DNA from: an uncultured Chloroflexia bacterium
GTDB taxonomy: Bacteria; Chloroflexota; Limnocylindria; Limnocylindrales; CSP1-4
Direction: 5' to 3'
Assembly (NCBI GenBank): GCA_963752475.1
Contig: CAVVYR010000027.1
Coordinates: 1 to 64,000, forward strand
Length of the DNA stretch: 64,000 nt
The position numbers and the translations under genes are program-made. Positions 6,931-64,000 of the stretch are shown here, in pieces (the first letter of the stretch is position 1; each line of letters starts with the position of its first letter). The notes below the pieces were generated by a model. It had not been told where the DNA came from. It did no database searches and worked only from the letters and a program-made list of their open reading frames with translations.

Positions 6931-7557
6931 CTAGCTCAGCAGGTCCTGGGCCACGACCGCGGCGGTGGCGGCATCCTTGGCGAAGCCGTCGGCCCCGATC
7001 TCGGCCGCGAACTCGTCGGTCACCGGCGCGCCGCCCACGAGGATCTTGGCCTTGGGGTCGGCCGCGCGCACGGCCTCGACGGCCGCCTTCATGCCCACCA
7101 TCGTGGTCGTCAGCAGGGCGCTGATGCCGACCACGTCGGCCTTGTGCTCCTTGACGCCCTCGGCGAAGGCCTCGGGGGCCACGTTGGTGCCAAGGTCGAC
7201 GATGGCGAAGTTGGCGCCCTTGAGCATCATGCCCACGAGGTTCTTGCCGATGTCGTGGAGGTCGCCCTGGACGGTGCCGATGACCGCGGTGTGGGCGGGC
7301 TTCACGCCCGAGGCCGCGAGCAGCGGCTCGATGAGCGCGGTGGCTTCCTTCATGGCGTGGGCGGCGATGAGCATCTCGGGCACGTACACGCCCTCGTTGC
7401 AGGCGAACTTGCGTCCCACCTCGGTCATGGCCTCGGTCATCGAGTCGAGGATCTCGCCGGGCGGAACGCCCTCGTCGACGGCGGCCTGCGTGAGGCTCAC
7501 GGCCTCAGCACGGTTGCCCGCCTCCACGGCGGCGGTCAGAGCGGAAAGGTCGGCCAT
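6931..7557 (-). CDS. Methyltransferase corrinoid (B12-binding) protein, copy 1
   Basis: Cap domain YVPEMLIAA plus GDLHDIGKNLV, SALLTTT, GGAP motifs. Confidence 0.95.
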   Translation of the reverse strand: MADLSALTAAVEAGNRAEAVSLTQAAVDEGVPPGEILDSMTEAMTEVGRKFACNEGVYVPEMLIAAHAMKEATALIEPLLAASGVKPAHTAVIGTVQGDLHDIGKNLVGMMLKGANFAIVDLGTNVAPEAFAEGVKEHKADVVGISALLTTTMVGMKAAVEAVRAADPKAKILVGGAPVTDEFAAEIGADGFAKDAATAAVVAQDLLS

Positions 7558-7590
7558 CTTCTGGTCCCTCCTCCTACAGATGATGGTCGG

Positions 7591-9294
7591 CTAGAACAGG
7601 CCGACCGGCTTGCCGTTCTCGTCGATGTCGACGTTGTTCCCGGCGGGCTGGCTGGGCAGGCCTGGCATGGTACGCATGTCGCCTGCGAGTGGATAGATGA
7701 ATCCTGCACCTGCCGCCAGTTTGACGTCTCTGATCGGGACGCGGAAGCCGGTCGGGCGGCCCAGGAGCGTGGGGTCATGTGAGATCGACAGGTGCGTCTT
7801 GGCCATACACACCGGCAACTCACTGTAGCCGAGCTGATCGTACAGGGCCAGCGCCTTGGTGGCCGCCGGGGCGAGATCCACGCCGTCGGCACCGTAGGCC
7901 TTGACCGCGATGGTCTCGATCTTCTCGGGCAGCGACATGTCGTCGGGGTACAGCAGCTGGAAGTCGGACTCCTCTTCGCAGGCATCCCAGACTGCCGCCG
8001 CGAGGGCTTCGGAGCCTGCGCCACCATCGGCCCAGTGAGTGGTCACGACGGCGTCGCGAGCGCCGGCCGCGAGGGCCACCTCGCGGATGGCCTCGAACTC
8101 CGACTCGGCATCGCCAGGGAAGGCGTTGATGGCCACGACCACGGGAACGCCGTAGCCTCGCACCATCTCGATGTGCGCGGCAAGGTTCTCGCCACCGACC
8201 CGCACGGCCTCTGGGTTCTCCTCGAGGAGCGCTGGGTCGAGCGGCTTGCCGGCCACGATCCTGCCCACGCCGCCGTGCATCTTCAGGGCCCGGACGGTGG
8301 CCACGACGACAGCGCAGTCGGGCGCCATGCCCGACGCGCGGCACTTGATGTCGAAGAACTTCTGGGCGCCCATGTCGGCGCCGAAGCCAGCCTCGGTGAC
8401 GACGATGTCGGAGGTGGCCAGGGCCACGCGGTCGGCCAGGATGGAGCTGTTGCCGTGAGCGATGTTGGCGAAGGGCCCGGCATGGACGAAAGCCGGTCCA
8501 CCCTCGAGGGTCTGCAGCAGGTTGGGCTTGATGGCGTCGAGCAGGAGCACGGTCATGGCGCCTGCGACCTGCAGGTCCTCTGCGGTCACAGCCGAGCCAT
8601 TGCGGTCGGTGGCCATGACGATGCGTCCCAGCCGCGCCCGCAGGTCGAAGACGTCGGTGGCCAGCGCGAGGATAGCCATGACCTCCGAGGCCACGGTGAT
8701 GACGAACTCGCTCTCGCGGGGCACACCGTTGATCTTGCCGCCGAGGCCGATGTTGACCTTGCGCAGGGCGCGGTCGCTGATGTCGACGACGCGGGGCCAG
8801 CGGATGGAGAAGGGGTCGATGTCGAGCGGGTTGCCGTGGTGCAGGCTGTTGTCGAGGAAGGCGGACGCGAGGTTGTGGGCGGCACCGATGGCGTGCACGT
8901 CACCGGTGAGGTGGAGGTTGAAGTCCTCCATCGGGATGACCTGGCTGTAGCCGCCGCCGGCCGCGCCGCCCTTGATGCCGAAGACCGGCCCCAGCGACGG
9001 CTGGCGGATGGCCACCGCGGCCTTGTGACCGATGCGGTTGAGGCCCTGCACCACGCCCACGGTGGTGGTCGTCTTGCCCTCACCCAGCGGGGTCGGCGTG
9101 ATGGCGGTCATGACCACGTACTTGCCGCGCGGGTTCTCCTGCTCGACACGCTCGAGGCCCTCGAGCGTGACCTTGGCCTTGGTCGTGCCGTAGGACTCGA
9201 TCTCATCGGGGCGCAGGCCGAGCTCGGCGGCGACGTCGGCGATCGGCCGCGGTGTCACCGAACGGGTGATGTCGAGGTCGGTCATGGCGGTCAT
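7591..9294 (-). CDS. fhs: Formate--tetrahydrofolate ligase
   Basis: TPTPLGEGKTTT, GIKGGAAGGGYSQV, HAGPFANIAHG, TMPGL signatures. Confidence 0.97.
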   Translation of the reverse strand: MTAMTDLDITRSVTPRPIADVAAELGLRPDEIESYGTTKAKVTLEGLERVEQENPRGKYVVMTAITPTPLGEGKTTTTVGVVQGLNRIGHKAAVAIRQPSLGPVFGIKGGAAGGGYSQVIPMEDFNLHLTGDVHAIGAAHNLASAFLDNSLHHGNPLDIDPFSIRWPRVVDISDRALRKVNIGLGGKINGVPRESEFVITVASEVMAILALATDVFDLRARLGRIVMATDRNGSAVTAEDLQVAGAMTVLLLDAIKPNLLQTLEGGPAFVHAGPFANIAHGNSSILADRVALATSDIVVTEAGFGADMGAQKFFDIKCRASGMAPDCAVVVATVRALKMHGGVGRIVAGKPLDPALLEENPEAVRVGGENLAAHIEMVRGYGVPVVVAINAFPGDAESEFEAIREVALAAGARDAVVTTHWADGGAGSEALAAAVWDACEEESDFQLLYPDDMSLPEKIETIAVKAYGADGVDLAPAATKALALYDQLGYSELPVCMAKTHLSISHDPTLLGRPTGFRVPIRDVKLAAGAGFIYPLAGDMRTMPGLPSQPAGNNVDIDENGKPVGLF

Positions 9295-9310
9295 CGGGTG
9301 TTCTCCTGGG

Positions 9311-10201
9311 CTAGCTGGTGCGAACCGACGGCGCGCCCACGGCGATCTGGCGGGTGGCCTGGTCGCGAGCGGCACGCATGAGGTGGGTGAGCAGGATGGC
9401 GTTGGTCAGCGGCCCCACGCCGCCGGGAACGGGGGTGATGGCGCTGGCGACTTCCGCGGCCGACTCGAAGTGCACATCGCCGACCAGCTGGTCGTCCACG
9501 ACGTTGATGCCGACGTCGACGACCACGGCCCCGTCCTTGAGCATCGAGCCGGTGACCATCTCGGCCCGGCCGATGGCCACGATGACCACGTCCGCCTCGC
9601 GCAGCACGGCCGGCAGGTCCCTGGTGCGCGAGTGGCAGGTGGTGACCGTGGCGTTCTCCCGCAGCAGCAGCTGGGCGGCGGGCTTGCCGATGACGTTGGA
9701 GCGACCGACCACGACCGCGTGGGACCCTGCCAGCTCGACACCCGAGCGCTTGAGCAGCTCGACCGAGGCATGCGCGGTGGCCGGCAGGTAGCCCTCGTAG
9801 CCGAGCGCGAGCAGGCCGGCGTTCAAGGGATGGATGCCGTCGATGTCCTTGCGCGGATCGAGTGTGTCAAGGACCACGCGCAGGGGGATGCAGTCGGGCA
9901 GGGGCTGCTGGACGATGATGCCCGCGACCCCCTGCTCGGCACCCAGGGCCTCGATGGTCCGGGCCAGCTCCGTTTCGGTGCAGTCACCCTCGAGCTCGAC
10001 GAGCCGGCCGCCGATGCCGACCTTCTCGCAGCCCCTGAGGATGCGCTCGAGGTAGACCATCGACGGAGCGTCGGCCCCGGCCACCACGATGGCCAACTCG
10101 GGGGTGTAGTCGAACTCATCCTTGAAGGCAGTGACGTCGGCCGCCACGCCCTCGCGGATCTCGGCTGCGACGGGTCCACCCTTGAGCAGCTCAGCCGTCA
10201 T
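9311..10201 (-). CDS. folD: Methylene-THF dehydrogenase/cyclohydrolase
   Basis: KDIDG, PAT, GRSNVIGKP, TPVPGGVGPLT. Confidence 0.97.
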   Translation of the reverse strand: MTAELLKGGPVAAEIREGVAADVTAFKDEFDYTPELAIVVAGADAPSMVYLERILRGCEKVGIGGRLVELEGDCTETELARTIEALGAEQGVAGIIVQQPLPDCIPLRVVLDTLDPRKDIDGIHPLNAGLLALGYEGYLPATAHASVELLKRSGVELAGSHAVVVGRSNVIGKPAAQLLLRENATVTTCHSRTRDLPAVLREADVVIVAIGRAEMVTGSMLKDGAVVVDVGINVVDDQLVGDVHFESAAEVASAITPVPGGVGPLTNAILLTHLMRAARDQATRQIAVGAPSVRTS

Positions 10202-10227
10202 CCCTTGTCCCTCCTGCCGTTCTGAGC

Positions 10228-11265
10228 CTAGCTCAGCTCACCGGCTCGGAAGGCTTCGATGAACCCCATGCCGAAGGCGTCCTCGCCGCTCAGCATCGCG
10301 CGGGCCAGCATGTAGGCCCTGGAGTCGCGGTCGGGGTTGAGCGCCGCGGCCACGTCGGCTACTGGGTCGATGATGCCGCTGTCCTGGCCGTTCTCGACGC
10401 ACATATCGAGGAACGTGTCGGTGATGATGCGGCGGGCCGGCAGGCCGAAGCTGATGTTGCTCACGCCGCCGGTGATGTGGATCTCGTCCCCGAAGCGCTC
10501 ACGGATGGTGCGCACCGCATCGAGGTAGGCCTGGCCGGCCATGGGATCGACGCCGATGGGGATGACCAGCGGGTCCACGTGCAGCGAGTCCTCGGGCAGG
10601 CCCTTCTCGAGGGCCATGCCGATGATCTGCTCTGCCCGCTCGACACGGTCCTGTGTGCCCGAGGGCATCGAGGCGCCGGTGCATGAGAGCACGACCGGCG
10701 TGCCGCGCTCCTTGACCAGGTCGAGCACGTCGGGGCGCTCGGTCGAGGCGGAGTTGATCATGGGCGTGGCACCGTCGGCCCAGGCAGGATCGATGGCGTC
10801 GAGGCCGGCTTCGAGCACGGCCGCGTCGGAAGAGTCGATCGACAGCGGCACGCTCGAGACGGGGCCGACGGCGGCCACCAGCCACTTCATGGCGTCGAGG
10901 CGACCGTCCACGTCTGAGCTGATCTCATCGACGTTGAGATCGAGGTAGTCGGCACCGCCGGCGATCTGACGCTGGGCCATCCAGGCCACGTAGCGGGCCG
11001 CCACATCCGCCTCTGTGCCAGCCGCAAGGCCCTGCCGGACAGCGGCCATCACGTGCTTGATGCGCTCGCTGGTGGTGAACTCCTTCGATCCGAGGATGGA
11101 GTCGGGGAGGGGCACCCACGACTCACCATCCCCGTCTGGGAAGCGCACGCCCGGGCGACCGTCGGGAGCGACCCCGCCGCGGATGCCCTCGCGCTTGACG
11201 ATGCGGCTGCAGTGGATGTTCTCGCCGATGATGATGAACTCGGTGCCACCTGCGGCCGTCTTCAT
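10228..11265 (-). CDS. Pterin-binding methyl-THF:corrinoid methyltransferase (AcsE/MeTr-like)
   Basis: IIIGENI, GADYLDLNV, PLSIDS, INS, DPLVIP, GGVSNISFGLP; start overlaps the upstream gene. Confidence 0.88.
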   Translation of the reverse strand: MKTAAGGTEFIIIGENIHCSRIVKREGIRGGVAPDGRPGVRFPDGDGESWVPLPDSILGSKEFTTSERIKHVMAAVRQGLAAGTEADVAARYVAWMAQRQIAGGADYLDLNVDEISSDVDGRLDAMKWLVAAVGPVSSVPLSIDSSDAAVLEAGLDAIDPAWADGATPMINSASTERPDVLDLVKERGTPVVLSCTGASMPSGTQDRVERAEQIIGMALEKGLPEDSLHVDPLVIPIGVDPMAGQAYLDAVRTIRERFGDEIHITGGVSNISFGLPARRIITDTFLDMCVENGQDSGIIDPVADVAAALNPDRDSRAYMLARAMLSGEDAFGMGFIEAFRAGELS

Positions 11266-12749
11266 GTTTCCTCTCCTTGGTTCTCTCGGGCGTAGTGATC
11301 GCGCCCCAGGAACGTGTTGGCCCAGGCGCTGGTGCCGCGCAACGCGTTGTCCTGGAGGACCGGTGCGCGGTCGAGCATGGTCATGGCCTCGTCGTACGGA
11401 CGGAGGCGGTCGTAGGCGACGGCCCAGACGCAGGGCTTGCCGGGCACTTCGCACTCACCGTCGATGGAGCCGCCGCAGGGGCCGTTGCGCTGGTTCTTGG
11501 CGCAGGCGCCCTCGGGGCACTGGTAGGCGATATCCGGCAGCGAGCAGTCGCCGCAGTCCTTGCAGTCGAACATCGGCACCTTGACCGCCTGCTCCAGGAC
11601 GTGGGCGGGCCACATCAGGCGGGACTTCTCGAGCGTGCCGTACGCCTTCGCGCCCATCTTGAAGCCCCGCGACCCGGGCTCGAAGGCGACGTCGTGCACG
11701 AGGCGGTTGAAGCGGTACCAGAGCGGCACGCGCTTGGTCTTGGTCGGGGGTGTCGGAACGGCCGAGGCCAGCTGCGGCAGATCACCCTGCTCGTACATGC
11801 GGTACGGCCTGGCCTCGGGAAAGTGGATGTCCGGGAGCACGGCCTGCCAGTCCTGCTGGAACTCGTTAGCCATGCTCAGGACCTTGTCGACCTCACCGGC
11901 GTTGCGCTGGCCGGCGAGGTAGGCGCCGGCGTAGCCCATGCCACGCACCACGGCGACCTGCTTGGCCGCGAACTCGAGGAAGGCGGCACGGCCCTTGTCG
12001 TCGGCCGCGGCCTGCTCCTCGGCCCAGGCCATCTGCGCCTCGCTCAGGCGGATGCCTGGGACACCGTCCCGATGGAAGACCTTGGCCACGCCCTTGGAGA
12101 GGACGTAGATCGAGGCCATCAGCGGGATGGGGCGCAGCTGTTCGCGGTTCCACTGCAGCAGCTCCGACCATGAGCGCGTGTCGTAGCCGACCTGGGTGAT
12201 AGCCACGTCGGCGCCGGCCTTGATCTTCATGGCCAGCTTGAGGTACTGCGGCACGAGGTCCGCCTCGACGGCCTTGAAGGGGTTGATGGCACAGCCGATG
12301 GTGAAGCCGGGGCCGGTGCTCCCGGCGTCGCGCAGCATCGAGATGAGCCCGACCGAGTCGATGTCGAAGACCGCCCGCGAGCGGCCGTGGAAGCCCTCCT
12401 TGGGGTAGTCGCCCGAAAGTGCGAGGGTGTTGGTCAGGCCCTCGCTGGCCAGCCCGTAGACGGTCGACTGGAGGGCGGCGCGGCTGCGATCGCGGCAGGC
12501 GAGGTGGACCACGCACTCACCACCCATGCCCTGGATGGCCTGGCCCAGGGTGAGCGGGCCGAGCCGGACGAAGCCGCCGGCGTTGTCGGTGACGGTGAGG
12601 GCCGTGACACGTTCGTCGGCGATGAGTTCACGGGCGGTCTCGCGGTGGCGCTCGCCGGCCTCGTCCTGAAGGGGACCGGCCCACGGCACGAGCTCCACGA
12701 GGGTGGTGCTGCCGTCGTCGCGCGCGAGTGATTCCGCGAACTTGCCCAT
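11262..12749 (-). CDS. metF: Methylene-THF reductase with fused C-terminal Cys-rich MetV-like domain
   Basis: VTDNAGG, HLACRDR, LALSGD, KIKAGA..ITQ; C-terminal CKDCGDC..C..CAKNQRNGPCGG..C..C. Confidence 0.88.
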   Translation of the reverse strand: MGKFAESLARDDGSTTLVELVPWAGPLQDEAGERHRETARELIADERVTALTVTDNAGGFVRLGPLTLGQAIQGMGGECVVHLACRDRSRAALQSTVYGLASEGLTNTLALSGDYPKEGFHGRSRAVFDIDSVGLISMLRDAGSTGPGFTIGCAINPFKAVEADLVPQYLKLAMKIKAGADVAITQVGYDTRSWSELLQWNREQLRPIPLMASIYVLSKGVAKVFHRDGVPGIRLSEAQMAWAEEQAAADDKGRAAFLEFAAKQVAVVRGMGYAGAYLAGQRNAGEVDKVLSMANEFQQDWQAVLPDIHFPEARPYRMYEQGDLPQLASAVPTPPTKTKRVPLWYRFNRLVHDVAFEPGSRGFKMGAKAYGTLEKSRLMWPAHVLEQAVKVPMFDCKDCGDCSLPDIAYQCPEGACAKNQRNGPCGGSIDGECEVPGKPCVWAVAYDRLRPYDEAMTMLDRAPVLQDNALRGTSAWANTFLGRDHYARENQGEET

Positions 12750-12812
12750 CGATCCTCCATCCTGCGAGAGCCACTTGGCTCAGGCTGGAAGGTATCGTTC
12801 CCGGTCACGCAC

Positions 12813-12826
12813 GTCAACCGGTTGAC
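12813..12826. promoter_or_regulatory. LacI-type operator palindrome GTCAACCGGTTGAC
   Basis: Perfect 14-bp palindrome with central CG between divergent metF and lacI genes. Confidence 0.65.
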
Positions 12827-12887
12827 CAACAAAGGGTCCGGATGGCACGGTAGGGACGTCCGAACGGACTTCCGGAGCAGGGGAACG

Positions 12888-13907
12888 ATGGCGCGAGGAA
12901 CCGGCAGAGCGACGATCACGGACGTGGCCCGCGAGGCCGGCGTCGACCGTGCCGTGGTGTCCAAGGTGCTCTCGGACGATCCCGGTTTGCGGGTGCGCGA
13001 TGAGACGCGTGAACGCGTCCGGGCTGCTGCCGCCGCGCTCGACTACCGGCCCAACTTCCACGCTCGTGGCCTCGCTCGTGCACGCGCCGGCGCCCTGGGC
13101 CTGTTGGTGCCGGCAGGGGATCCGTTGATGGTGCCGGTCATCGCCGGCGCAGAGGAGGCGGCGGACGAGCGGGGCCTGCTGCTGTGGACCGCGTACCACG
13201 ACGGGGAACTGACCGAACGCTCCCTGCGTCTGCTGCAGAGCGGGGCCGTCGATGCGGCGCTGGTGGCCGGCCTGCGCGCGGGCTATCACGCCGATGCGCT
13301 GCTGCGCGACCCGCGCGTGCCCACGCTGCTGGTCGACCGACGCACCGTGGGCTCCGATCGCTGGATCATCGTCGACGACGAGGGGGCCGCCCGCGTCGCG
13401 ACCGAGCACCTCATCGCCCAGGGCCACACGCGCATCGGCTGGGCCGGCGGTCGTGCCGGTGTCGATACCGCCCAGCGCCGGGCCAACGGTATCCGCGACG
13501 CCATGGCCGCGGCCGACCTCTGGCTCGACCCGTCGTGGGTCGTGGCCGCCGACTACACGCCAGAGGGTGGGGCCAGGGCCGTGGCCGAGATCCTGCAGAG
13601 CGAGCTGCGCCCCACCGCCATCGTGGCCGCCGATCCCAACGAGGCGCTTGGCGCCTGGCACGAGCTGGAGCGACGCGGGTTGCGCGTGCCGGATGACATC
13701 TCGCTCGTGGCCATCGGGAAGCTGCCCGCGGAGGACTACCGTGTGGACCCGCTCACCTGCGTCGAGATGCCGCTGAATCGTTTGGGCCGCCTGTCGGTGG
13801 AGCTCGTGCTCGACAACCCCTGGGACCGGCCCATCCGCGAGGTCCTCGCCGATGGCTTCGTCATCTCCGATGGCGCCACGGTGGCACCGCCTGGCGAGGG
13901 TGACTGA
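12888..13907 (+). CDS. LacI family regulator
   Basis: TITDVAREAGV..YRPN..ARGL; VPDDISLV; PLTCV. Confidence 0.95.
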   Translation: MARGTGRATITDVAREAGVDRAVVSKVLSDDPGLRVRDETRERVRAAAAALDYRPNFHARGLARARAGALGLLVPAGDPLMVPVIAGAEEAADERGLLLWTAYHDGELTERSLRLLQSGAVDAALVAGLRAGYHADALLRDPRVPTLLVDRRTVGSDRWIIVDDEGAARVATEHLIAQGHTRIGWAGGRAGVDTAQRRANGIRDAMAAADLWLDPSWVVAADYTPEGGARAVAEILQSELRPTAIVAADPNEALGAWHELERRGLRVPDDISLVAIGKLPAEDYRVDPLTCVEMPLNRLGRLSVELVLDNPWDRPIREVLADGFVISDGATVAPPGEGD

Positions 13908-20236: not shown

Positions 20237-20300
20237 CTGGACGATCTCGGGATCATCCAGGTAGTTGGTGCGGAGTCGTACTGCCTTGATGGGTTGCCTC

Positions 20301-47042: not shown

Positions 47043-47048
47043 GCCGAT

Positions 47049-49870: not shown

Positions 49871-49908
49871 TCGGTCAGGTCGAAGGCCTCGAGGGTGCGG
49901 ACCCGTCG

Positions 49909-50229
49909 TCATCCTTCATCCTCGTCTCCGCCGATCAGTACGTAGCCATCCTGGATGCGGACCGAGACTCGACGTAGGGACTCCGTGGCCGGCTCCTCGA
50001 TGACAGCTCCCGTGAGAGCGTCGAACTCCGAGAAGTGGGCAGGGCACGTGATGACGGTCCGGTCGAGGTAGTCCCCTTCGAAGGGGACGTCCTGGTGGGT
50101 GCATCGACCCTCGAGCGCGACCACGACCTCACCAGCTCGGGTCACGACCACCGGCACGTGGCCGTCGTGGAAGATCGTGGCTTCTCCATCGACTAGGTCA
50201 TCAAAGCGTATCTGCAGCACCGGGGTCAA
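49909..50229 (-). CDS. Rieske [2Fe-2S] ferredoxin
   Basis: CTH...CPAH motifs; 106 aa. Confidence 0.92.
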   Translation of the reverse strand: MTPVLQIRFDDLVDGEATIFHDGHVPVVVTRAGEVVVALEGRCTHQDVPFEGDYLDRTVITCPAHFSEFDALTGAVIEEPATESLRRVSVRIQDGYVLIGGDEDEG

Positions 50230-57053: not shown

Positions 57054-57076
57054 GCCTCTAGGCGCAGGTCGAACGA

Positions 57077-58033
57077 ATGGCGGGACGGGACGACAGGCAG
57101 CACGCGGTGGCCGCTGCGATGCCGCCCGTCGTCCCGCCCGTCGTCGTCCGTCGTTCACGCCGATCGGAATGGAAGAGGTCGGTCTTCGGGCTTGCGGTAG
57201 TCGCTCCAGTGGTCCTGCTGCTGGCTGCGCTGCTCGCGTATCCCTTGTTGCGCACGCTCCAGCAGAGCCTGTTCGACGTCCGTCCAGCGCTCCAGAAGAA
57301 CGAGTTCATCGGGCTCGATGGGTTCGGCGACATGCTCGCGGATCCGGTCTTCTGGACGGTCTTCATGAACTCGCTGCTCTGGACCGGGGTCGTGGTCGCT
57401 CTCCAGTTCAGCATCGGGCTGCTGGGCGCCTTCGTCCTGCAGCGTGCGTTTCGCGGGCGCTGGCTGGCTCGAGGGCTGGCCATCCTACCCTGGGCTATCC
57501 CCGGCGTGGTGGCGGCCATGGTCTGGCGGCTGCTCTATGACCCACAGATCGGCACGTTGCAGATCCTCACTGGGCCCCTCGGCATCGGGCCTCTGGACAT
57601 CCTGGGCAGGCCTGACACGGCACTCTGGGGTGTCATCGTCGCCGCCGCCTGGAAGGGCTTCCCGTTCTGGATGCTCATCCTTCTCGCAGCCCTTCAGGCC
57701 GTGCCGCGTGAACAGGTGGAAGCCGCAGCCATCGACGGTGCCGGGCACCTCGGCGTCTTCCGGCACGTGATGCTTCCTACGATGCGGCCGGTGATACGCA
57801 TCGGCGTGATCCTGACCTCCATCTGGACGTTCAACTATTTCGAGATGGTCTACGTGATGACCGGAGGTGGTCCGGTGCGCTCATCGCACATCTTCCCCAC
57901 GATCATCTACGAGGAGGCGTTCCGGCGACTGGACTTCGGGAATTCGTCCCGATATGCGCTGGTCAGCATGCTGCTCCTCATGGTCGTCGGCGTCTTTCTA
58001 GTGCGCGAGGCGCGGCGGAGCGAAACGCGATGA
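57077..58033 (+). CDS. Carbohydrate ABC permease (MalF-type)
   Basis: PWAIP, EAAAIDGA, MTGGGP. Confidence 0.93.
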   Translation: MAGRDDRQHAVAAAMPPVVPPVVVRRSRRSEWKRSVFGLAVVAPVVLLLAALLAYPLLRTLQQSLFDVRPALQKNEFIGLDGFGDMLADPVFWTVFMNSLLWTGVVVALQFSIGLLGAFVLQRAFRGRWLARGLAILPWAIPGVVAAMVWRLLYDPQIGTLQILTGPLGIGPLDILGRPDTALWGVIVAAAWKGFPFWMLILLAALQAVPREQVEAAAIDGAGHLGVFRHVMLPTMRPVIRIGVILTSIWTFNYFEMVYVMTGGGPVRSSHIFPTIIYEEAFRRLDFGNSSRYALVSMLLLMVVGVFLVREARRSETR

Positions 58034-58043
58034 AGGTGACGGC

Positions 58044-58880
58044 ATGATCGGCTGGCGGACCCGACGATGGGAGGTCCTCTGGGGCATCGGGGCGTTCCTG
58101 CTGCTGGCCTGGGTGGCCTTCCCCTTCATCTTCATGATCTCCACATCGTTCAAGCCGCCGACCGAGCAGCTCACGGCGCCGCCGACGGTCCTGCCTGAGA
58201 ACCCCACGCTGGACAATTACCGGAGCGCGCTCGGCCAGTCGGTGTTCTTCCGCTACCTGGCGAACAGCGTCGTGGTGACCGTCGGTACCACCGTGCTGGC
58301 CATCACGTTGGGGGCGATCGCGACCTTCGGCTTCACGCGCCTTCGCTTCCCCGGCCGGCGCAGCTTGATGGTAGCTGTCGTCCTTGGTCAACTCGTCCCG
58401 CTCGCCGCGATCGCCGTGCCGATGTACCAGATGGCCAGCGGCCTTGGGCTCATCGACTACCTCCCCGCATTGATCGTCGCGTACCTGGCGGTGACGCTAC
58501 CGGTGACCGTGTGGATGCTGCGTAGCTACCTTGGCAGCATCCCCCGCGAACTCGAGGAGGCGGCCATCATCGACGGCTGCTCGGAGTGGGGTGCGTTCCG
58601 CCGAATCGTGCTTCCACTTGCGGCTCCCGGAATCGCCGCCACTGCCTCCTTCGTCTTCTTCCTCATCTGGCAGGAATTCCTGTTCGTCCTCATCTTCACG
58701 ACTAGTCCGGACAACCGTACGCTGCCGGTCGGCATCCTGGACTTCGTCGGCCAGTTCGAGACGAACTGGGGCAATCTCATGGCCGCCTCGATCCTGATGG
58801 CGATTCCCGCCGTGATCGCGTTCGCGCTCATCCAGCGCCATCTGATCGCCGGCCTGACGGAAGGTTCGGTGAAATCGTGA
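58044..58880 (+). CDS. Carbohydrate ABC permease (MalG-type)
   Basis: ELEEAAIIDG, TLPVGI, GLTEGSVK. Confidence 0.93.
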   Translation: MIGWRTRRWEVLWGIGAFLLLAWVAFPFIFMISTSFKPPTEQLTAPPTVLPENPTLDNYRSALGQSVFFRYLANSVVVTVGTTVLAITLGAIATFGFTRLRFPGRRSLMVAVVLGQLVPLAAIAVPMYQMASGLGLIDYLPALIVAYLAVTLPVTVWMLRSYLGSIPRELEEAAIIDGCSEWGAFRRIVLPLAAPGIAATASFVFFLIWQEFLFVLIFTTSPDNRTLPVGILDFVGQFETNWGNLMAASILMAIPAVIAFALIQRHLIAGLTEGSVKS

Positions 58881-59818
58881 ACCATCTGATCGGCGTGTCC
58901 CTCAACATCGGGTCTCACGCCTGGTACGTGAGACAGGTCGCGGCCGAGCGTCGAGCAGCGGAGTTGGCTGGTGCATCTGTCACGGTCCGCGACGCGAAAG
59001 ACCGAGTAGACCAGCAGGTGTCCCAGGTTCGCGAACTCATCGAGCTTGGTGCGGATGCCATCATCCTGAGCGCCACACGTCCTGAGGCGATCGGTGAAGC
59101 GCTGGACGAGTGCCGTAGCCGTGGCGTGGCAGTCATCGGCGAGTCCATCGCTCTGGACCACCCTGCTGTGGTGGCAGAGGTGCGTGTCGACGATACGGCG
59201 GCAGGTGTCGCCCTGGGTTCGGCCACGGGCGCGGCGCTCGAGATCGCGGATGAAAGGATTCCCGGGTTGGTCGCGGTCGGCTTCTCGAGCTTGCGTGAGT
59301 CGCACGACCGCGAGCGAGGCTTCCTTGAGGGTCTACGACGAGTGCATCCCCACGCGCAGGTGGCGTACATCGATGGACGCGCCCAGGTCGATGCGGCACG
59401 GGCTGCGACGCTGCGAGTCATGGGCTCGATCGGTGCCGATCGGCGTCCGGACGCACTGTTCGGCGTTGACGACGAATCGGTCATCGGCGCACGACAGGCC
59501 TTCGAAGAGCTTGGCGTGGACCTTGGGCCCACGATCGTGGCCACATTCGGCATTTCGCCGCCGGGCGGCCCGGCGCTCATCGATGACGGCATCATCGACT
59601 TCGGCGTGGCGATGTTCCCTGAATGGCACGGACAGGTGCTTGTCGACCTCGCCCTGCTGCACTTGGACGGTCGCGACCACCCGCGACTCGTGAACCCGCC
59701 GTCAGCCGTGGTAACCGCTTCGGGCACTGCCACCGGATGGGACCGCTTCTATCGGCGCGACGGCGAGACCTACGAACTGGACGTCGGCGCGGTGCGGGCT
59801 CTCGGAGGGGACGTCTGA
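58877..59818 (+). CDS. RbsB-like sugar-binding domain protein, no signal peptide or HTH
   Basis: IGVSL start, QQVSQV..GADAII, RERGF, DESVIGA. Confidence 0.75.
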   Translation: MNHLIGVSLNIGSHAWYVRQVAAERRAAELAGASVTVRDAKDRVDQQVSQVRELIELGADAIILSATRPEAIGEALDECRSRGVAVIGESIALDHPAVVAEVRVDDTAAGVALGSATGAALEIADERIPGLVAVGFSSLRESHDRERGFLEGLRRVHPHAQVAYIDGRAQVDAARAATLRVMGSIGADRRPDALFGVDDESVIGARQAFEELGVDLGPTIVATFGISPPGGPALIDDGIIDFGVAMFPEWHGQVLVDLALLHLDGRDHPRLVNPPSAVVTASGTATGWDRFYRRDGETYELDVGAVRALGGDV

Positions 59819-60600
59819 TGGAGCGGCCGGATCGCCGGTTCCTCGGTCGGGTGGCATGGATCACCGGGGCCGGCAAGGGGATCGGAGCTGCGGCAGCCCA
59901 GCGGTTCGCTGCCGAGGGCGCCACCGTGGCGGTGCTTTCGGCCAGCGAGGTATCGGCCCGCGCAAGCGCCGACGCGTGCCGGGCGTTAGGTGTCGAAGCG
60001 CTCCCGCTGTGGGGTGACGCGGCGGACATCACGGTACTGGAGGCGTCGCATGCTCGGATCGTCCAGCGGCTTGGCTCGGTCGACGTGTTGGTCAACAACG
60101 TGGCCGAGGCCCTTTCGTCGCCTCTAGCCGAGTCCAGTGAGGACCACTGGCAGCGCGTCCACGATGTGAACTTCCGCTCGGTCGTTCGCTGCGCGCGTCT
60201 CGTGGTCCCAGGGATGCGACAGAAGCAACGTGGGGTCATCGTCAACATCAGCAGCAACCACGGGACGAGGGGTTTTCCTGGCTGGGGTGCGTATGCGTCG
60301 GCCAAGGGCGCGATGATGGCCCTGACCCGCCAACAGGCCGTCGAGCTGGCCTCTGATGGCATTCGCGTCGTATCGGTAACACCCGGCGCAACGATGACGC
60401 CGCTGAACGAGCAGCGTTTCGCGGAAGCGGAGGACCCGGTCGCGCTGGAACGTGAGTTCGTGGCCGGCATCCCGATGCGACGGCTGGCCTCACCGCAAGA
60501 GATCGCCAACGCCATCGCGTTCGTCGCCTCCGATGAGGCTTCGTTCATGACCGGGGCCGATCTGCTCATCGACGGCGGCGAGTCGATCCAGGGTGGCTGA
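59818..60600 (+). CDS. SDR oxidoreductase
   Basis: TGAGKGIG, NNV, YASAK, TGADLLIDGG. Confidence 0.92.
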   Translation: MERPDRRFLGRVAWITGAGKGIGAAAAQRFAAEGATVAVLSASEVSARASADACRALGVEALPLWGDAADITVLEASHARIVQRLGSVDVLVNNVAEALSSPLAESSEDHWQRVHDVNFRSVVRCARLVVPGMRQKQRGVIVNISSNHGTRGFPGWGAYASAKGAMMALTRQQAVELASDGIRVVSVTPGATMTPLNEQRFAEAEDPVALEREFVAGIPMRRLASPQEIANAIAFVASDEASFMTGADLLIDGGESIQGG

Positions 60601-60643
60601 GGCCGTCCCTAGGGATGCGAATGCGACAAGGAGTGACGCGAGA

Positions 60644-61861
60644 ATGACCGCAGCCAAGGCCACGCTGCCCAGCTATGCCGAGTATTTCGATCGGGACCCC
60701 TTCGGTTTCTTCGAGAGCGTGCGCTCCGAAGGCCCTGCCGTGTGGGATGAGGGTATGCAGGCGTGGCTCGTCGCCGCCTACGAGGACGTAGTCACCGTGA
60801 TGCGCAGGGAGGACCTCTTCCTGGCTCCGTGGCCGCGGATGGACTTCGAGTCGATCTTCGGGCGGCGGTCGCTCTTCATGATCGAGGGCGAAGACCATCG
60901 GCGTCTCTACACGAAGATCAGCCAGTTCTTCACACGCGCGATCATCGACGACTACCGGCAGCGCTTCATCCGACCGCTCGTGGACGATCGCCTCGAGAGG
61001 ATCGCCTCGCGAGGACGCGCAGAGTTCGCCTCGGAGCTCGCACAGGAGATCCCCGTCCGGGTCATCGGCTCGATGCTCGGCGTGCCGTGGCAGGACGAAC
61101 AACTGGGGCACGACGTGTGGGGCTGGACGAGCGGCTTCCTGGCCCACACCGGCACCTGGATCCTTCCCGACGCCGGGAAGGATACGCAGGGTGCTGCTGA
61201 GCGATCCATGGCGCGCCTCGACGACCTCCTCCGCCCGTTAGTCGGGCGAGACGTCGCGCGTGAACCCGGGGACTACATCTCGCAGCTCTGGGAGTTCGGG
61301 CCGACGGTGTTCGAAGACTGGGACGAGCAGGATGTCCTTGAGAACTGCCGCTTCCTGTTCATCGCCGGTGTGCATACGACGACGGAGTTGCTCTGCAATG
61401 CACTCTACGCGATCCTTACCACCGATGGGCTCGAGGACAGGCTGCGACAGGACCGCAGCCTCATCCATGGTTTCATCGAGGAGGTGCTGCGCCTGAGCCC
61501 ATCGATGCACGTGCGGATGCGCATCGTGGGCGAAGACACGAGCGTCGGCTCCGTGGCCATGAAGGAGGGTCAGCGCGTGCTGGCCGTCCTCGCTGCTGCC
61601 AATCGCGACCCCGCACGCTACGAACACGCATCTCGGATGGATCTCGCCCGTAGGAAGATCGCGAGCCATCTGACATTCAGCCGCGGACCGCGCGCCTGCG
61701 CCGGGGCGCCGCTCGCTCGCACGGAAGCTCACGCACTCATCGATGCGATGCTGGACCGCATCGAGGGTCTGCGCCTCGACCCGCAGATGCCGCCACCCAT
61801 CAACGAGGGCTTCCTCCAGCGTGCGTTCATGCCGCTCCACGCGACCTACCGGGCGCGCTGA
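60644..61861 (+). CDS. Cytochrome P450
   Basis: I-helix AGVHTT, EEVLR, ANRDP, heme motif FSRGPRACAG. Confidence 0.93.
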   Translation: MTAAKATLPSYAEYFDRDPFGFFESVRSEGPAVWDEGMQAWLVAAYEDVVTVMRREDLFLAPWPRMDFESIFGRRSLFMIEGEDHRRLYTKISQFFTRAIIDDYRQRFIRPLVDDRLERIASRGRAEFASELAQEIPVRVIGSMLGVPWQDEQLGHDVWGWTSGFLAHTGTWILPDAGKDTQGAAERSMARLDDLLRPLVGRDVAREPGDYISQLWEFGPTVFEDWDEQDVLENCRFLFIAGVHTTTELLCNALYAILTTDGLEDRLRQDRSLIHGFIEEVLRLSPSMHVRMRIVGEDTSVGSVAMKEGQRVLAVLAAANRDPARYEHASRMDLARRKIASHLTFSRGPRACAGAPLARTEAHALIDAMLDRIEGLRLDPQMPPPINEGFLQRAFMPLHATYRAR

Positions 61862-61896: not shown

Positions 61897-63069
61897 GTGA
61901 CGCCCAGGCAACGTGTGCTGGCCGCTCTCGATCATCGCGAGCCAGACGGCCTCCCGCTCGACGTGGGAGCCACGAACGTCACCGGCGTCCACCGGGCAGT
62001 CTTCGAGCCACTCATCCGCCAGTTGGGCCATCGCGGTGAGGTGTCCACGCTTGACCCGAGGCTCGGTCTCGCGTTGATCGACCGCGAGGCTCGGGACTTG
62101 CTCGGCGTGGACGCCGCGATGGTCACCCAGCATGGTCCCTCGCCGGAGCATTACCAGATGTCAATCGTGGAGGAGGGCGATCACGCCGATCTTCGCGACG
62201 AGTACGGCGTTCTTTGGCGGATGCCCCTCGACCAGCGCTTGTACTTCGACATGGTGGAGCACCCGCTCGCCGGCGATGTCGACCTGCGCGACATCGAGCG
62301 CTACCCGTGGCCCGATCCGGTCGATCCACACCGGTTCGAGGGCATGGCGGAGCGCGCCGGCGCCATCGTTCGGGAGGAACGGCGTGCGACCTGTTTCGGC
62401 AACATCTCCACCGGCCTGTTCGAGTTCGCCATCCGGATGCGCGGCTACGAGTCGTTCTTCATGGATATGCTCACAAACAAGCCGCTGGCCGAGGCCCTGC
62501 TCGAGAAGGCACTTGAGTTGAAGCTGGCCTACTGGGAGCGCGTCATCGAGCTCGTGGGTGACGACATCGATGTCGTGGTGGACACGGACGACTATGGGAC
62601 ACAGCGTTCACTGATGATCTCACCGGTCACGTGGCGTGAGCTCATAGGACCGCGGTTGCGGAAGCTCAACGACTTCATCCACTGCAACAGCCGCGCAACG
62701 GTGCTGCTGCACTCCTGCGGCGCGATCAAGGGGCTGATCCCCGATCTGATCGACTCCGGGGTGGACATCCTCAACCCCATCCAGGTGAGCGCCACGGACA
62801 TGGACACGGCCGAGCTGAAGCGCGAGTTCGGTCGCGACATCGTCTTCTGGGGCGGCGGGGTCGACACGCAGTACACGCTGCCCACCGGCACACCCGAAAG
62901 CATCCGCGACGAGGTTCGCCGCCGCGTCGAGGACTTGATGGCGGGGGGTGGCTTCGTGTTCGCCGCCGTCCACAATATCCAGCCCGATGTGCCGGTCCGG
63001 AATGCAGCGGCCATGCTCGAGGCGGTGGCCCAGTACCGCGGCACCGACTCGGTCCAGGGAGGTTCATGA
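61897..63069 (+). CDS. URO-D-family putative methyltransferase
   Basis: TPRQRVLAALDHREPD, DDYGTQ, LHSCG, LNPIQ, GGGVDTQ, VHNIQ. Confidence 0.9.
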   Translation: MTPRQRVLAALDHREPDGLPLDVGATNVTGVHRAVFEPLIRQLGHRGEVSTLDPRLGLALIDREARDLLGVDAAMVTQHGPSPEHYQMSIVEEGDHADLRDEYGVLWRMPLDQRLYFDMVEHPLAGDVDLRDIERYPWPDPVDPHRFEGMAERAGAIVREERRATCFGNISTGLFEFAIRMRGYESFFMDMLTNKPLAEALLEKALELKLAYWERVIELVGDDIDVVVDTDDYGTQRSLMISPVTWRELIGPRLRKLNDFIHCNSRATVLLHSCGAIKGLIPDLIDSGVDILNPIQVSATDMDTAELKREFGRDIVFWGGGVDTQYTLPTGTPESIRDEVRRRVEDLMAGGGFVFAAVHNIQPDVPVRNAAAMLEAVAQYRGTDSVQGGS

Positions 63070-63725
63070 TGGTGCGAGCAAGAGCGCAAGTGCTGGACGG
63101 TTTGACCGATACCGGGGTCGTCGCGGTCGTCCGAGTCGATGACTCGACCGGCCTGAGTCCGCTCGCGGCCGCACTTCACGAGGGTGGCGTCACCCACACG
63201 GAGATCACCATGACGGTCCCCGGCGCGCTGGCAGCCATCGAGGCCACCGTGCGCGAGCTTGGCGATGGAGTCTGTATCGGAGCCGGCACGGTACTCGATG
63301 CGGTGACGGCGCGACTCGCCATCGACGCGGGTGCCGCCTTCATCGTCGGCCCCAGCCTTGACCCCGACGTCATCATGCTGGCTCACCGATACGGGGTGGT
63401 GGTCATCCCTGGTTGTCTCACGCCGACCGAGATCGTCCGCGCTTGGTCAGCTGGCGCAGATGTGGTCAAGCTTTTCCCTGGGCGGGTCGCCACGCCCGGC
63501 TACTTCTCCGACCTGCGCGGACCTCTCCCTCGGGTCCGGCTCATGCCGACCGGCAACGTGGACCTCGTGACAGCGCCCGAGTACATCGCTGCTGGAGCGG
63601 TCGCTGTGGGCGCGGGCAAGGCGCTCGTCGAGCCGACGGCGTTCAAGGAGCAGCGCTGGTCAGACATCGCCGACAACGCCCGCCGGTTCGTGGCGGTCGT
63701 CGCCGATGCACGGGCAAACCGATGA
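63066..63725 (+). CDS. eda: KDPG/KHG aldolase
   Basis: VVAVVR, EITMT, GAGTVLD, PGCLTPTE, VKLFP, PTG. Confidence 0.9.
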   Translation: MMVRARAQVLDGLTDTGVVAVVRVDDSTGLSPLAAALHEGGVTHTEITMTVPGALAAIEATVRELGDGVCIGAGTVLDAVTARLAIDAGAAFIVGPSLDPDVIMLAHRYGVVVIPGCLTPTEIVRAWSAGADVVKLFPGRVATPGYFSDLRGPLPRVRLMPTGNVDLVTAPEYIAAGAVAVGAGKALVEPTAFKEQRWSDIADNARRFVAVVADARANR

Positions 63726-63801
63726 TGGGTGCTCGGCTGCATCGTGTGTTCGTGTCGGGCGAGTCCCCGTTCCCTCAACATGCTGCCCGTGGTGTCATCC
63801 A

Positions 63802-64000
63802 GTGACTGCCGACGTCATCGAGACGCAGGCCCTCGTCTCCCCGGCCGCGGGGGAAGAGGTCGAGGTCATGCCCATCCAGGTGGACCCACCGGGTCCAGGT
63901 GAGGTCCGCGTCCGCATCACCGCCAGCGGGATCTGCCACACCGACCGGATGGTGGCCGACGGCGTGTGGTGGGCGGACCATCCGTACGTCTTGGGGCACG
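63802..64000 (+). CDS. Zn-dependent alcohol dehydrogenase (3' partial)
   Basis: PGPGEVRVRI..SGICHTD..LGH, open frame to the window end. Confidence 0.85.
   Translation, partial: MTADVIETQALVSPAAGEEVEVMPIQVDPPGPGEVRVRITASGICHTDRMVADGVWWADHPYVLGH

Follow-up and report, generated by a model that had tools for sequence, protein, structure and literature searches.

Corrinoid-dependent O-demethylation is known from the three-component systems of anaerobes (OdmB/VdmB of Acetobacterium dehalogenans, MtvABC of Moorella, those of Desulfitobacterium hafniense, and MtoABCD of Methermicoccus), whose substrates are phenyl methyl ethers. Here we describe genes of the uroporphyrinogen decarboxylase (URO-D) family that lie, together with corrinoid proteins and a one-carbon (C1) module, in a context of monosaccharide transport and catabolism in an uncultured Chloroflexia bacterium (Limnocylindrales, CSP1-4). 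The DNA analysed, called the window below, comprises positions 1 to 64,000 of contig CAVVYR010000027.1 (C27) of assembly GCA_963752475.1. In their components, the three-component systems have in common with this gene set a methyltransferase I (MT1) from the UroD superfamily, a small corrinoid protein with DxHxxG, a methyltransferase II (MT2) of pterin-binding type that passes the methyl group to folate, an ATP-dependent activator of RACo/RamA type, and many MT1 paralogs served by few corrinoid proteins. The metal site here, His/Cys-or-Asp/His, is unlike theirs. The host, in whose 88.8%-complete genome a heme-copper oxidase (COX1) is present and no acetyl-CoA synthase (PF03598, CdhC) was found, appears to be an oxygen-respiring heterotroph and not an acetogen, so that the methyl group would be oxidised instead of being built into acetate as by acetogen O-demethylases.

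By sequence as well as by fold, the best solved match is MtaA of Methanosarcina (4ay7), a methylcobamide:coenzyme M methyltransferase, whose LH-x-C-G motif aligns. One window protein (48146-49459) retains the full H-x-C...C triad of MtaA, whereas the 390-residue protein at the centre of this study (URO-D-390) shares about 20% identity with MtaA in the structural alignment and belongs to a group, here called class II, in which His takes the place of Cys as third ligand. The host of MtaA is a methanogen, whereas the present genes belong to a bacterium without a methanogenesis context. In aerobic methylotrophs, cmuA and cmuB stand together with metF, folD and purU. A further chloromethane system, cdmBCA, is described in A. 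dehalogenans (accessible part of PMC13222342). The chloromethane pathways, of which that of the cmu hosts is aerobic, resemble the present gene set in leading from a corrinoid methyltransferase through methyl-tetrahydrofolate (methyl-THF) to formate by a dedicated MetF/FolD module; they differ in that their donor is a halomethane, whereas here Fhs replaces PurU, the module is under a LacI regulator and the link of the candidate donors is to carbohydrates.

Two oxidative systems are also close. Marine Bacteroidota use a P450 6-O-methyl-D-galactose demethylase with alcohol dehydrogenases (accessible parts of PMC6292453, PMC10033563 and PMC9400963). As there, a P450 lies in a carbohydrate-use operon of the window with a Zn-type alcohol dehydrogenase (Zn-ADH) nearby; unlike there, the operon has no ferredoxin/ferredoxin reductase pair, the P450 is paired with a corrinoid-type enzyme, and its best solved relatives are generic YjiB/CYP107/PikC types. 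In rhizobia, MocDE is a demethylating oxygenase. The mocDEF genes of the rhizopine cluster act in 3-O-methyl-scyllo-inosamine catabolism (accessible part of PMC3538637). That system, like the loci considered here, sets a desaturase-like oxygenase and a Rieske ferredoxin beside inositol-type genes, a fused homolog following URO-D in 4-5 related loci, and a Rieske protein occurs in the window; it differs in that no MocD-like oxygenase was found in the window by tblastn.

The nearest study found on MtaA-like clusters of bacteria (accessible text of PMC10418091) counts demethylases of O-, S- and halogen type among the UroD superfamily, and the words sugar and carbohydrate are absent from it; a floodplain genome survey (PMC11264602), in its accessible part, gives for Limnocylindria corrinoid methyltransferase genes, all of methylamine type. 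A search of the full-text literature, with supplementary files and subscription journals outside it, found no description of corrinoid-dependent carbohydrate demethylation. Methylated sugars are abundant (4-O-methylglucuronate in xylan, 2-O-methyl-fucose and 2-O-methyl-xylose in pectin, 6-O-methylgalactose in red algae, methyl-rhamnoses in microbial and algal glycans, and methyl-inositols), they block ordinary sugar catabolism, and the established removal route in the literature we found is oxidative, by P450.

We consider it somewhat probable (roughly 55%) that the class II URO-D proteins act as substrate:corrinoid methyltransferases on methylated sugars or cyclitols brought into the cell, and that the methyl group so removed passes to THF and is oxidised to formate. 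Taken by itself, corrinoid-dependent methyl transfer by the class II enzymes is highly probable; given such transfer, a carbohydrate-type methyl donor is favoured with lesser but still clear probability. Methylated cyclitols or N-/S-methyl sugars fit about as well as O-methyl sugars. Overall, the comparison suggests that an enzyme system already known serves a new class of substrates here, in a physiological setting that is also new. The genes concerned are as follows, beginning with the URO-D-390 operon (ABC, ATP-binding cassette; CUT1 and CUT2, carbohydrate uptake transporter families 1 and 2; SBP, solute-binding protein; SDR, short-chain dehydrogenase/reductase).

55797-58880, plus strand: CUT1 sugar ABC importer, consisting of an SBP (55797-57053) and two permeases (Pfam)
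58877-59818, plus strand: Peripla_BP_4 protein in which no helix-turn-helix or leader was detected (Pfam)
59623-60600, plus strand: SDR dehydrogenase (Pfam)
60593-61861, plus strand: cytochrome P450, 36 bp upstream of the URO-D gene (Pfam)
61897-63069, plus strand: URO-D-390, intact class II URO-D of 390 residues with H272/C274/H359, putative substrate:corrinoid methyltransferase (MT1) (PF01208)
63066-63725, plus strand: Eda, 2-keto-3-deoxy-6-phosphogluconate (KDPG)/2-keto-4-hydroxyglutarate aldolase (PF01081, 135 bits)
63892-64000, plus strand: start of a Zn-ADH that continues past the window end (family search)
about 64.9-66.0 kb of the contig, outside the window: PfkB, following the Zn-ADH
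C27:66062-67456 (L088:2563-3957), outside the window: 465-residue URO-D-fold protein without Pfam match, last gene of the operon

The C1 module and its regulator occupy the other end of the window:

6931-7557, minus strand: corrinoid protein CP1, 208 residues (B12-binding_2 + B12-binding), last gene of the C1 operon (Pfam)
7591-9375, minus strand: Fhs, formate-THF ligase (PF01268, 834 bits)
9311-10201, minus strand: FolD, methylene-THF dehydrogenase/cyclohydrolase (PF02882 + PF00763)
10228-11265, minus strand: MT2, pterin-binding methyl-corrinoid:THF methyltransferase (PF00809)
11262-12749, minus strand: MetFV, methylene-THF reductase fused to a MetV-like C-terminal domain (MTHFR + DUF5981) (Pfam)
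12822-13907, plus strand: LacI regulator, divergent from the C1 operon (Pfam)

The remaining URO-D and corrinoid genes are a remnant upstream of a rhamnosidase operon and the members of a second methyltransferase cluster:

27511-27621, minus strand: class II URO-D C-terminal remnant of 37 residues (tblastn 46% identity over 35 aa; hidden Markov model (HMM) positions 348-384, domain E 1.5e-7)
44964-46041, minus strand: third URO-D gene, H-D-N at the metal-site positions, frameshifted as assembled
47049-47675, minus strand: corrinoid protein CP2 (Pfam)
48146-49459, minus strand: MtaA/CmuA-type URO-D methyltransferase with an H-x-C...C zinc triad (PF01208, 203.7 bits)

An earlier note on this DNA had proposed a single system between 6931 and 64000 with three URO-D/MtaA-type genes plus a relic, two corrinoid proteins, an AcsE-like/MetFV/FolD/Fhs set, and a P450, a Rieske protein and a Zn-ADH. 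All of these genes were found, and the gene set from corrinoid to THF to formate is complete; the span itself, however, consists of several operons. Specifically, the plus-strand operon runs from 55797 with the CUT1 importer at its head, followed by the Peripla_BP_4, SDR, P450, URO-D and Eda genes, and the Eda start overlaps the URO-D-390 stop codon by 4 bp (translational coupling). On the minus strand, 6931-12749 forms a tight operon in the order MetF-MetV, MT2, FolD, Fhs and CP1.

Both intact URO-D proteins of the window are nearest to MtaA (4ay7) among solved structures. For URO-D-390 the sequence match has E 6.4e-7; the score against TIGR01463 is 59.5 bits, under the cut-off of 235.4, and there is no match to HemE TIGR01464. 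Its AlphaFold2 (AF2) model has a predicted local distance difference test (pLDDT) value of 92.5, and the top Foldseek hit is MtaA 4ay7 (E 1.2e-16), followed by HemE; no solved MT1 O-demethylase appeared among the Foldseek hits. The MtaA motif LH-I-C-G aligns with LH-S-C-G of URO-D-390. In 20 sequences, H272 and H359 are invariant, and position 274 is Cys in 13/20 and Asp in 7/20; the third zinc ligand of MtaA, which we take to be a Cys (as we take the other ligand identities), aligns with the invariant H359. A wider comparison covered 134 sequences (22 paralogs of the own genome and 112 URO-D open reading frames (ORFs) from fetched loci) and gave the triads H-C-H in 96, H-D-H in 23 and H-C-C in 5. 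Within the window, 48146-49459 has H-C-C (MtaA type), 61897-63069 H-C-H (class II) and 44964-46041 H-D-N. A ligand set rich in N and O would suit an oxygen-bound substrate better than a thiolate. In the tree, the paralogs of the genome are dispersed among orthologs of other genomes, which looks like an old functional diversification and not a recent burst of duplication.

The genome contains 24 PF01208 matches, corresponding to about 22 genes, and three genes of the window exceed the cut-off of this family. The best full-length PF01208 scores were those of C13:24303-25388 and C1:98067-99203, both with MtaA-type H-x-C...C residues, so that neither resembles a typical HemE; a bona fide hemE was not identified among the PF01208 genes of the genome, for which no dedicated follow-up was made. 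Four to seven tandem URO-D paralogs were seen in L035, L044 and L078 (Latescibacterota, Armatimonadota and Spirochaetaceae).

Corrinoid dependence of the class II enzymes is indicated by several observations. The genome has five stand-alone corrinoid proteins in addition to MetH, and one MttB-family gene; no MtaB was found in the 88.8%-complete genome by family search. Since MtaB was not found and the MttB-family gene is single, the URO-D proteins are the main candidate partners of the five stand-alone corrinoid proteins. A corrinoid protein lies within 10 kb of 7/24 URO-D ORFs in the own genome, compared with a fraction of 0.027 at random. CP2 is 98% identical to CP1, both have DxHxxG, and GDLHDIGKN is invariant in 13/13 aligned corrinoid proteins, CP1 and CP2 included. 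CP1 scored below all NCBIfam cut-offs, its best match being of MtgC/MtbC type. A complex of URO-D-390 with CP2 was predicted with an ipSAE of 0.76, whereas the best of 3 controls reached 0.00; three runs of the prediction shared at least 89% of contacts, with a partner pLDDT of at least 83. The mark used for a complex was reached by 58/80 solved complexes and 2/110 mismatched pairs, counts that apply here only approximately, since the prediction was run with our own alignments.

The earlier note had also called for a search for a RamA/RACE activator, and a full-length RACo (Fer2 + Raco_middle + RACo_C_ter) was indeed found on contig C10, outside the window, as the only copy of the genome. Among 301 sampled genomes of the phylum, class II URO-D (E <= 1e-30) occurs in 32 and RACo in 103. 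RACo is present in 32/32 genomes with class II URO-D, which span 15 families, vs 71/269 of the others, a co-occurrence that counts related genomes and for which only 6 candidates per genome were scored for URO-D. In several genomes RACo lies a few kb from URO-D (e.g., G027, G253, G299, L034, L039 and L067), and the L039 operon reads RACo, LacI, transporter, URO-D, URO-D, corrinoid protein. Note that an FGGY carbohydrate kinase lies about 24 bp downstream of RACo on the same strand (C10:15673-18825; L091:5674-8826).

We next turn to the carbohydrate link. A pattern scan with one genome per species confirmed 566/598 candidate stretches, and the best 80 loci were retained; they span Chloroflexota, Armatimonadota, Spirochaetes, Planctomycetes, Bacteroidota, Halanaerobiales, Atribacteria, Bacillota and others. 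The ORFs of these loci were clustered without prior labels, and 20 cluster representatives, from clusters in at least 5 loci, were annotated with Pfam. Eighteen of the 20 annotated clusters are families of monosaccharide/polyol transport and catabolism plus the corrinoid protein; the other two are a GNAT acetyltransferase and a cluster without family match, and no aromatic-ring family is among the 20. Same-strand neighbours were the CUT2 ATPase (39/80 loci), CUT2 permease (32/80), CUT2 binding protein (25/80), LacI (17/80), GFO/IDH/MocA (16/80), corrinoid protein (14/80, clusters only), FGGY kinase and SDR (11/80 each), ROK (10/80), GntR-UTRA (9/80), PfkB (about 8/80), Zn-ADH (8/80), FAD oxidoreductase and the phosphotriesterase family (7/80 each), aldo-keto reductase (6/80), and SIS, a xylose-isomerase-like TIM protein and a fatty-acid-desaturase + Rieske fusion (5/80 each).

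When clusters and HMMs were combined, ABC transporter genes were present in 43/80 loci, on the same strand in 40. With HMMs added, a sugar kinase (FGGY/ROK/PfkB) was found in 28/80 loci, an ABC transporter or kinase in 50/80, a corrinoid protein in 15/80, MT2 in 6/80 and RACo in 3/80; at least 2 URO-D genes stand in 20/80. In the 37 loci with full 10-kb flanks, ABC genes occur in 24 and a corrinoid protein in 6. A typical operon (L068) has the order LacI, binding protein, ATPase, permease, URO-D, URO-D, corrinoid protein, Zn-ADH, FGGY. In the own genome, 16/24 URO-D ORFs have a sugar-type gene no more than 5 kb away, compared with a fraction of 0.215 at random positions. The association of URO-D homologs with sugar genes, set beforehand as a test, thus holds in the own genome as well as in the 80 loci. 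On contig C19, three URO-D genes and two corrinoid proteins lie amid a CUT2 transporter, lactonase-type amidohydrolases and an MR_MLE dehydratase, together with an altronate/galactarate dehydratase, GFO and aldo-keto reductase (AKR) enzymes and a DUF1638 gene, all well formed. The DUF1638 gene directly adjoins a third stand-alone corrinoid protein (C19:45552-47064; L090:12053-13514), near an ABC ATPase and the altronate/galactarate dehydratase.

Judged from homology and gene context, the pathway would begin when an ABC transporter under LacI control brings in a sugar, sugar acid or cyclitol that carries a methyl group. The class II URO-D (61897-63069) would then bind the substrate at its His/Cys(Asp)/His metal site, the 208-residue corrinoid protein in its Co(I) state would accept the methyl group, and MT2 (10228-11265) would transfer it to THF. 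The gene content suggests that MetF-MetV, FolD and Fhs may oxidise the methyl group to formate with a gain of ATP, and the RACo-type activase encoded elsewhere in the genome would re-reduce oxidised cobalt. The demethylated backbone may enter dehydrogenase, KdgK and Eda-type cleavage steps encoded in the same operon. The P450 directly upstream of URO-D-390 may use oxygen to demethylate or hydroxylate the same substrate or one related to it.

As to the oxygenases, each of the four P450 genes of the genome has a URO-D gene no more than 11 kb away (no more than 5 kb for three of them), and two directly adjoin one (upstream on C27, downstream on C29). The P450-URO-D pair is repeated in another Limnocylindrales locus (L021), the sole P450 locus among the 80. 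In Anaerolineae/Thermoflexales-type loci (L001, L003, L005 and L009), a desaturase-Rieske fusion directly follows URO-D within CUT2 operons, and it occurs also in L055; this fusion resembles MocD + MocE of the rhizopine cluster. Since a P450 is found in some lineages and a MocDE-like enzyme in others, lineages appear to pair the B12-type enzyme with different types of oxygenase, each of a type known to remove methyl ethers, and this pairing may provide an oxygen-dependent and an oxygen-independent route for one nutrient. The P450 route suggested by the earlier note is supported in so far as a P450 lies directly upstream of a URO-D gene. The 60 best matches of this protein (60593-61861) in the PDB are YjiB, CYP107, PikC, CYP109/106 and similar enzymes.

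The 465-residue protein that ends the URO-D-390 operon belongs to a family of at least 863 members named "hypothetical proteins", about 412-465 residues in size. A language-model lookup led to URO-D-like clusters; with hhalign, the family had no significant match to the URO-D alignment (probability 1.6%, E 0.031), and its profile gave nothing meaningful against PDB sequences. The AF2 model (pLDDT 82.5) has HemE and MtaA structures as the first 25 listed Foldseek rows, with E 2.9e-9 to 3.4e-5, and the protein is placed in the URO-D fold because the fold search, alone of these, put it there. The invariant residues of the family include H293, C356 and C357, and C294 is conserved at 90% or above. 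Three genome copies (C27:66062-67456, C19:36380-37693 and C6:217051-218958) are all next to or near a class II URO-D; the family adjoins URO-D in 1/80 loci.

In its fullest form the proposal is more tentative, and we rate it slightly below even odds: carbohydrates or cyclitols would have their alkyl methyl ethers cleaved by Co(I) corrinoid chemistry, which is not known to have been described for any enzyme, in a family spread across many phyla; the pairing with a P450 in one operon here, and with a MocDE-like oxygenase elsewhere, would allow use of the same nutrient with or without oxygen; a LacI-controlled MT2-MetFV-FolD-Fhs module would yield formate and ATP; and the 465-residue URO-D-fold family would be a further component. 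If true, an oxygen-independent B12 route would supply a missing step in carbon cycling under anaerobic and micro-oxic conditions, link carbohydrate degradation to the C1 and B12 economies of soils and sediments, and bring unactivated alkyl ethers within reach of corrinoid methyltransferase chemistry, a point of interest for biocatalysis. Of 8000 candidates scored, 7776 are relatives of URO-D-390 at E <= 1e-10. The best 120 listed are all named "uroporphyrinogen decarboxylase" (or that family) or "hypothetical protein", so that one assay would re-annotate thousands of genes.

Several points weigh against demethylation of carbohydrates by the class II enzymes. To our knowledge, the characterised URO-D-superfamily MT1s all act on aryl methyl ethers, halomethanes or thiols, and we know of no URO-D MT1 for alkyl (sugar) methyl ethers, whose leaving group is poorer. 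All NCBIfam matches of the window proteins fall under the curated cut-offs. A corrinoid protein is adjacent in only 15/80 loci; 18/80 loci, including 6/37 with full flanks, have no labelled neighbour; and the RACo co-occurrence is affected by the relatedness of the genomes mentioned above. The predicted complex may reflect likeness to known corrinoid-protein complexes, and none of the best 60 PDB matches of the P450 is titled carbohydrate demethylase. Furthermore, the linkage of the C1 module to the remaining window hangs on one assembly join, and the repeated block that contains it (described below) may be a strain variant or assembly branch instead of a neighbour of the remaining window.

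Two alternatives survive best, both of them unlikely in our estimation. According to one, the URO-D proteins are ordinary aryl O-demethylases that act on methoxylated aromatics (lignin monomers or methoxylated flavonoid glycosides), the sugar genes being near through glycosides or the use of plant litter. The characterised O-demethylases of the UroD superfamily (OdmB and VdmB) are all phenolic in the accessible text of PMC10418091. A GH78 rhamnosidase, a type that also cleaves flavonoid rutinosides, adjoins the C1 module, and a cluster of enoyl-CoA hydratase, CoA-transferase and acyl-CoA-ligase genes adjoins the second methyltransferase cluster. The best solved relative of MT2 is 4o0q/4o1e/4o1f (E 8.5e-27), which we take to be MT2 of the Desulfitobacterium aryl O-demethylase; MeTr/AcsE comes next, these being matters of homology only. 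Set against this are the composition of the 20 annotated neighbour clusters, the position of URO-D between transporter and kinase/aldolase genes on one strand, and the result that neither LigB-type nor intradiol ring-cleavage dioxygenases were found in the 88.8%-complete genome.

The other alternative, of much the same low standing, keeps the carbohydrate link and replaces O-methyl sugars by O-methyl-inositols (pinitol, rhizopine-like compounds) or by N-/S-methyl sugars (methylthioribose, N-methyl amino sugars). The combination of GFO/IDH/MocA, xylose-isomerase-like TIM and PfkB (7-8/80 for the last) among the neighbours is typical of inositol catabolism, the MocDE-like fusion follows URO-D in the four loci named above, and the Rieske protein of the window resembles the Rieske domain of that fusion (32% identity to that of L003). 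The window URO-D operon, on the other hand, has Eda, PfkB, SDR and Zn-ADH and not IolE, IolD or IolB, and FGGY, ROK and SIS neighbours elsewhere point to true sugars. Such substrates would in any case refine the demethylation of imported methylated carbohydrates proposed here, and not contradict it.

It is less probable still that the class II URO-Ds are not methyltransferases, acting as cofactor-free decarboxylases or other sugar-acid enzymes, or otherwise without a corrinoid, and that the C1 module serves other donors, e.g., through the MttB-family enzyme of which the genome has one gene. HemE has the same fold and needs no cofactor, no corrinoid protein occurs in 65/80 loci, and similarity to MtaA at the sequence level is weak; nevertheless, RACo accompanies class II URO-D in all 32 sampled genomes that have it, URO-D-URO-D-corrinoid protein operons, some with RACo or MT2, occur in L039, L063, L067 and L068, the metal-site positions of MtaA are conserved, and the modelled interface with the corrinoid protein set URO-D-390 clearly apart from its controls. 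A chance juxtaposition or an artefact of a contaminated bin, in which C1 module, URO-D and sugar genes would be functionally unlinked, is very improbable despite an estimated contamination of 5.83%, the duplicated block at a contig end and many single-base indels relative to short-read contigs, since binning cannot create the URO-D/Eda start-stop overlap or a same-strand operon and these associations are seen again in 80 independent loci as well as elsewhere in the own genome (contigs C19, C6 and C29). Corrinoid-dependent demethylation of imported methylated sugars or cyclitols remains our preferred reading. A lifestyle like that of an acetogen or a methanogen-like methylotroph was rejected, given the presence of COX1 and that CdhC and MtaB were not found in the 88.8%-complete genome.

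The assembly comprises 4.25 Mb in 38 contigs (88.8% complete, 5.8% contamination), and the G+C content of the window is about 67%. ORFs were picked by third-position G+C, and 70 window ORFs were scanned against Pfam, with further whole-genome family searches made alongside; 17/70 scanned ORFs had no Pfam family, several of these being alternative frames. Window positions 116-13900 are 98.1% identical to C19:1-13778, with 11 gap columns. This 13.9-kb block contains an E1 dehydrogenase, a DeoR regulator, a 526-residue ORF without known family, the C1 operon and LacI, and stops exactly at the LacI stop codon; on C19, a URO-D gene comes immediately after it. The block was duplicated recently, or else the bin contains two strain variants of it, and either way the neighbour of the C1 module is a carbohydrate or URO-D locus. 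In the C19 copy, a 1-base indel at window position 11644 merges MetFV with MT2; the window version retains the MetV-like domain and so looks intact. The likely start of MT2 is the ATG at 11265, with AAGGAGAGG upstream and an overlap with the MetFV stop codon. MT2 scored 180.6 bits against PRK07535, under the cut-off of 259. A search for inverted repeats in eight intergenic regions found no common palindrome (LacI operator) joining the C1 operon to the sugar operons.

Window positions 28000-47999 were compared with short-read contigs (depth 3-5) that derive from three DNA runs, all of a single study of metagenomes from freshwater sediment and soil. They differ by 12 listed single-base indels and 7 further ones; the window has an extra base at 10/12 of those listed, and these are not in homopolymers. 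Dropping the indels 37651 and 37728 fuses both halves of the MR_MLE dehydratase into one open frame. The apparent relics at 28-46 kb are thus at least partly assembly errors or strain differences, and the long-contig assembly probably carries consensus indel errors. The genes of this stretch are broken as assembled, but their relic state is doubtful, and we rejected the view that the broken genes are certain pseudogenes, given these indels. Likewise, of the ROK relics that had been reported, one weak match (22.9 bits) was recovered and no second was found.

The second methyltransferase cluster and its surroundings, at 44-55 kb, comprise in addition to the URO-D and CP2 genes listed above:

44128-44952, plus strand: GntR/FCD regulator adjoining the cluster (Pfam)
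47801-48067, minus strand: weak ROK N-terminal remnant between CP2 and the MtaA-type gene (PF00480, 22.9 bits, E 1.1e-4)
49484-49912, minus strand: 142-residue ORF, 4-bp overlap with the Rieske gene (weak IstB/IS21 ATPase Pfam match, 28 bits)
49909-50229, minus strand: Rieske [2Fe-2S] protein (Pfam)
50271-51467, minus strand: SBP (Pfam)
51464-52546, minus strand: LacI regulator (Pfam)
between this cluster and the operon at 55797: more CoA-transferase genes

On the minus strand the order is LacI, SBP, Rieske, 142-residue ORF, MtaA/CmuA-type URO-D, ROK remnant, CP2 and the frameshifted URO-D, and the LacI and SBP genes overlap by 4 bp. A protein-atlas lookup of the 142-residue ORF gave IstB-like leads only (score <= 0.85). 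Relatives of the 48146-49459 protein are about 348 residues long, so that its true start is probably inside the 437-residue ORF; they are named "MtaA/CmuA family methyltransferase" by JGI, and the nearest solved structure is 4ay7 (E 1e-23). The 437-residue ORF scored 148.1 bits against TIGR01463 (cut-off 235.4) and 75.4 bits against HemE TIGR01464 (cut-off 302.95), in both cases under the cut-off. The gene was matched in 4/301 phylum genomes (E <= 1e-40) and in 2/201 class genomes (E <= 1e-60), the own genome included in both counts. This MtaA/CmuA-type enzyme, encoded next to CP2, probably shuttles methyl groups between the corrinoid protein and some other partner. The C-terminal half of the frameshifted third URO-D lies at 45021-45602 and its N-terminus at 45928-46041 in a different frame; a short-read contig across 44813-45091 has 2 gaps relative to the window.

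The sugar operons and the genes that follow them, at 15-44 kb, are:

15328-27313, minus strand: rhamnosidase operon, LacI-headed (Pfam)
within 15328-27313, minus strand: two GFO/IDH/MocA oxidoreductases and two CUT1 permeases (Pfam)
17609-20236, minus strand: GH78 alpha-L-rhamnosidase (Pfam)
22097-23464, minus strand: SBP of the rhamnosidase operon (Pfam)
23803-25986, minus strand: GHL6 hydrolase (Pfam)
26279-27313, minus strand: LacI regulator of the rhamnosidase operon (Pfam)
28270-38629, plus strand: CUT2 sugar ABC transporter (Peripla_BP_4, ABC_tran, two BPD_transp_2), then sugar-acid genes, fragmented as assembled (Pfam)
within 28270-38629, plus strand: the sugar-acid genes, namely metallo-beta-lactamase-fold (MBL), SDR, DUF4432, PfkB, KDPG-aldolase-like and MR_MLE dehydratase (Pfam, tblastn)
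35489-36574, plus strand: PfkB (Pfam)
about 36.5-37.3 kb, plus strand: Eda (KDPG-aldolase-like) fragment
39.7-44 kb: SDR, split acyl-CoA ligase, family III CoA-transferase and enoyl-CoA hydratase (Pfam)

The remnant at 27511-27621 lies about 200 bp upstream of the LacI gene of the rhamnosidase operon. The CoA-transferase, enoyl-CoA hydratase and acyl-CoA-ligase genes, like the E1 dehydrogenase and DeoR genes of the repeated block, are not counted here as parts of the methyl-transfer system. The whole window holds three SBP_bac_1 proteins, three LacI regulators and one GntR (Pfam), and the sugar ABC transporters, glycosidases (GH78 and GHL6), PfkB, Eda with its fragment and LacI/GntR regulators named in the earlier note were all located. 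With single representatives of FGGY, AKR, phosphotriesterase, SIS and FAD oxidoreductase as tblastn queries, none was detected in the window at E <= 1e-4. Two further ORFs, both on the plus strand and without Pfam match, have a high third-position G+C: 5045-6625 (0.84), and 46033-46830 (0.87), which overlaps the N-terminus of the frameshifted URO-D on the opposite strand.

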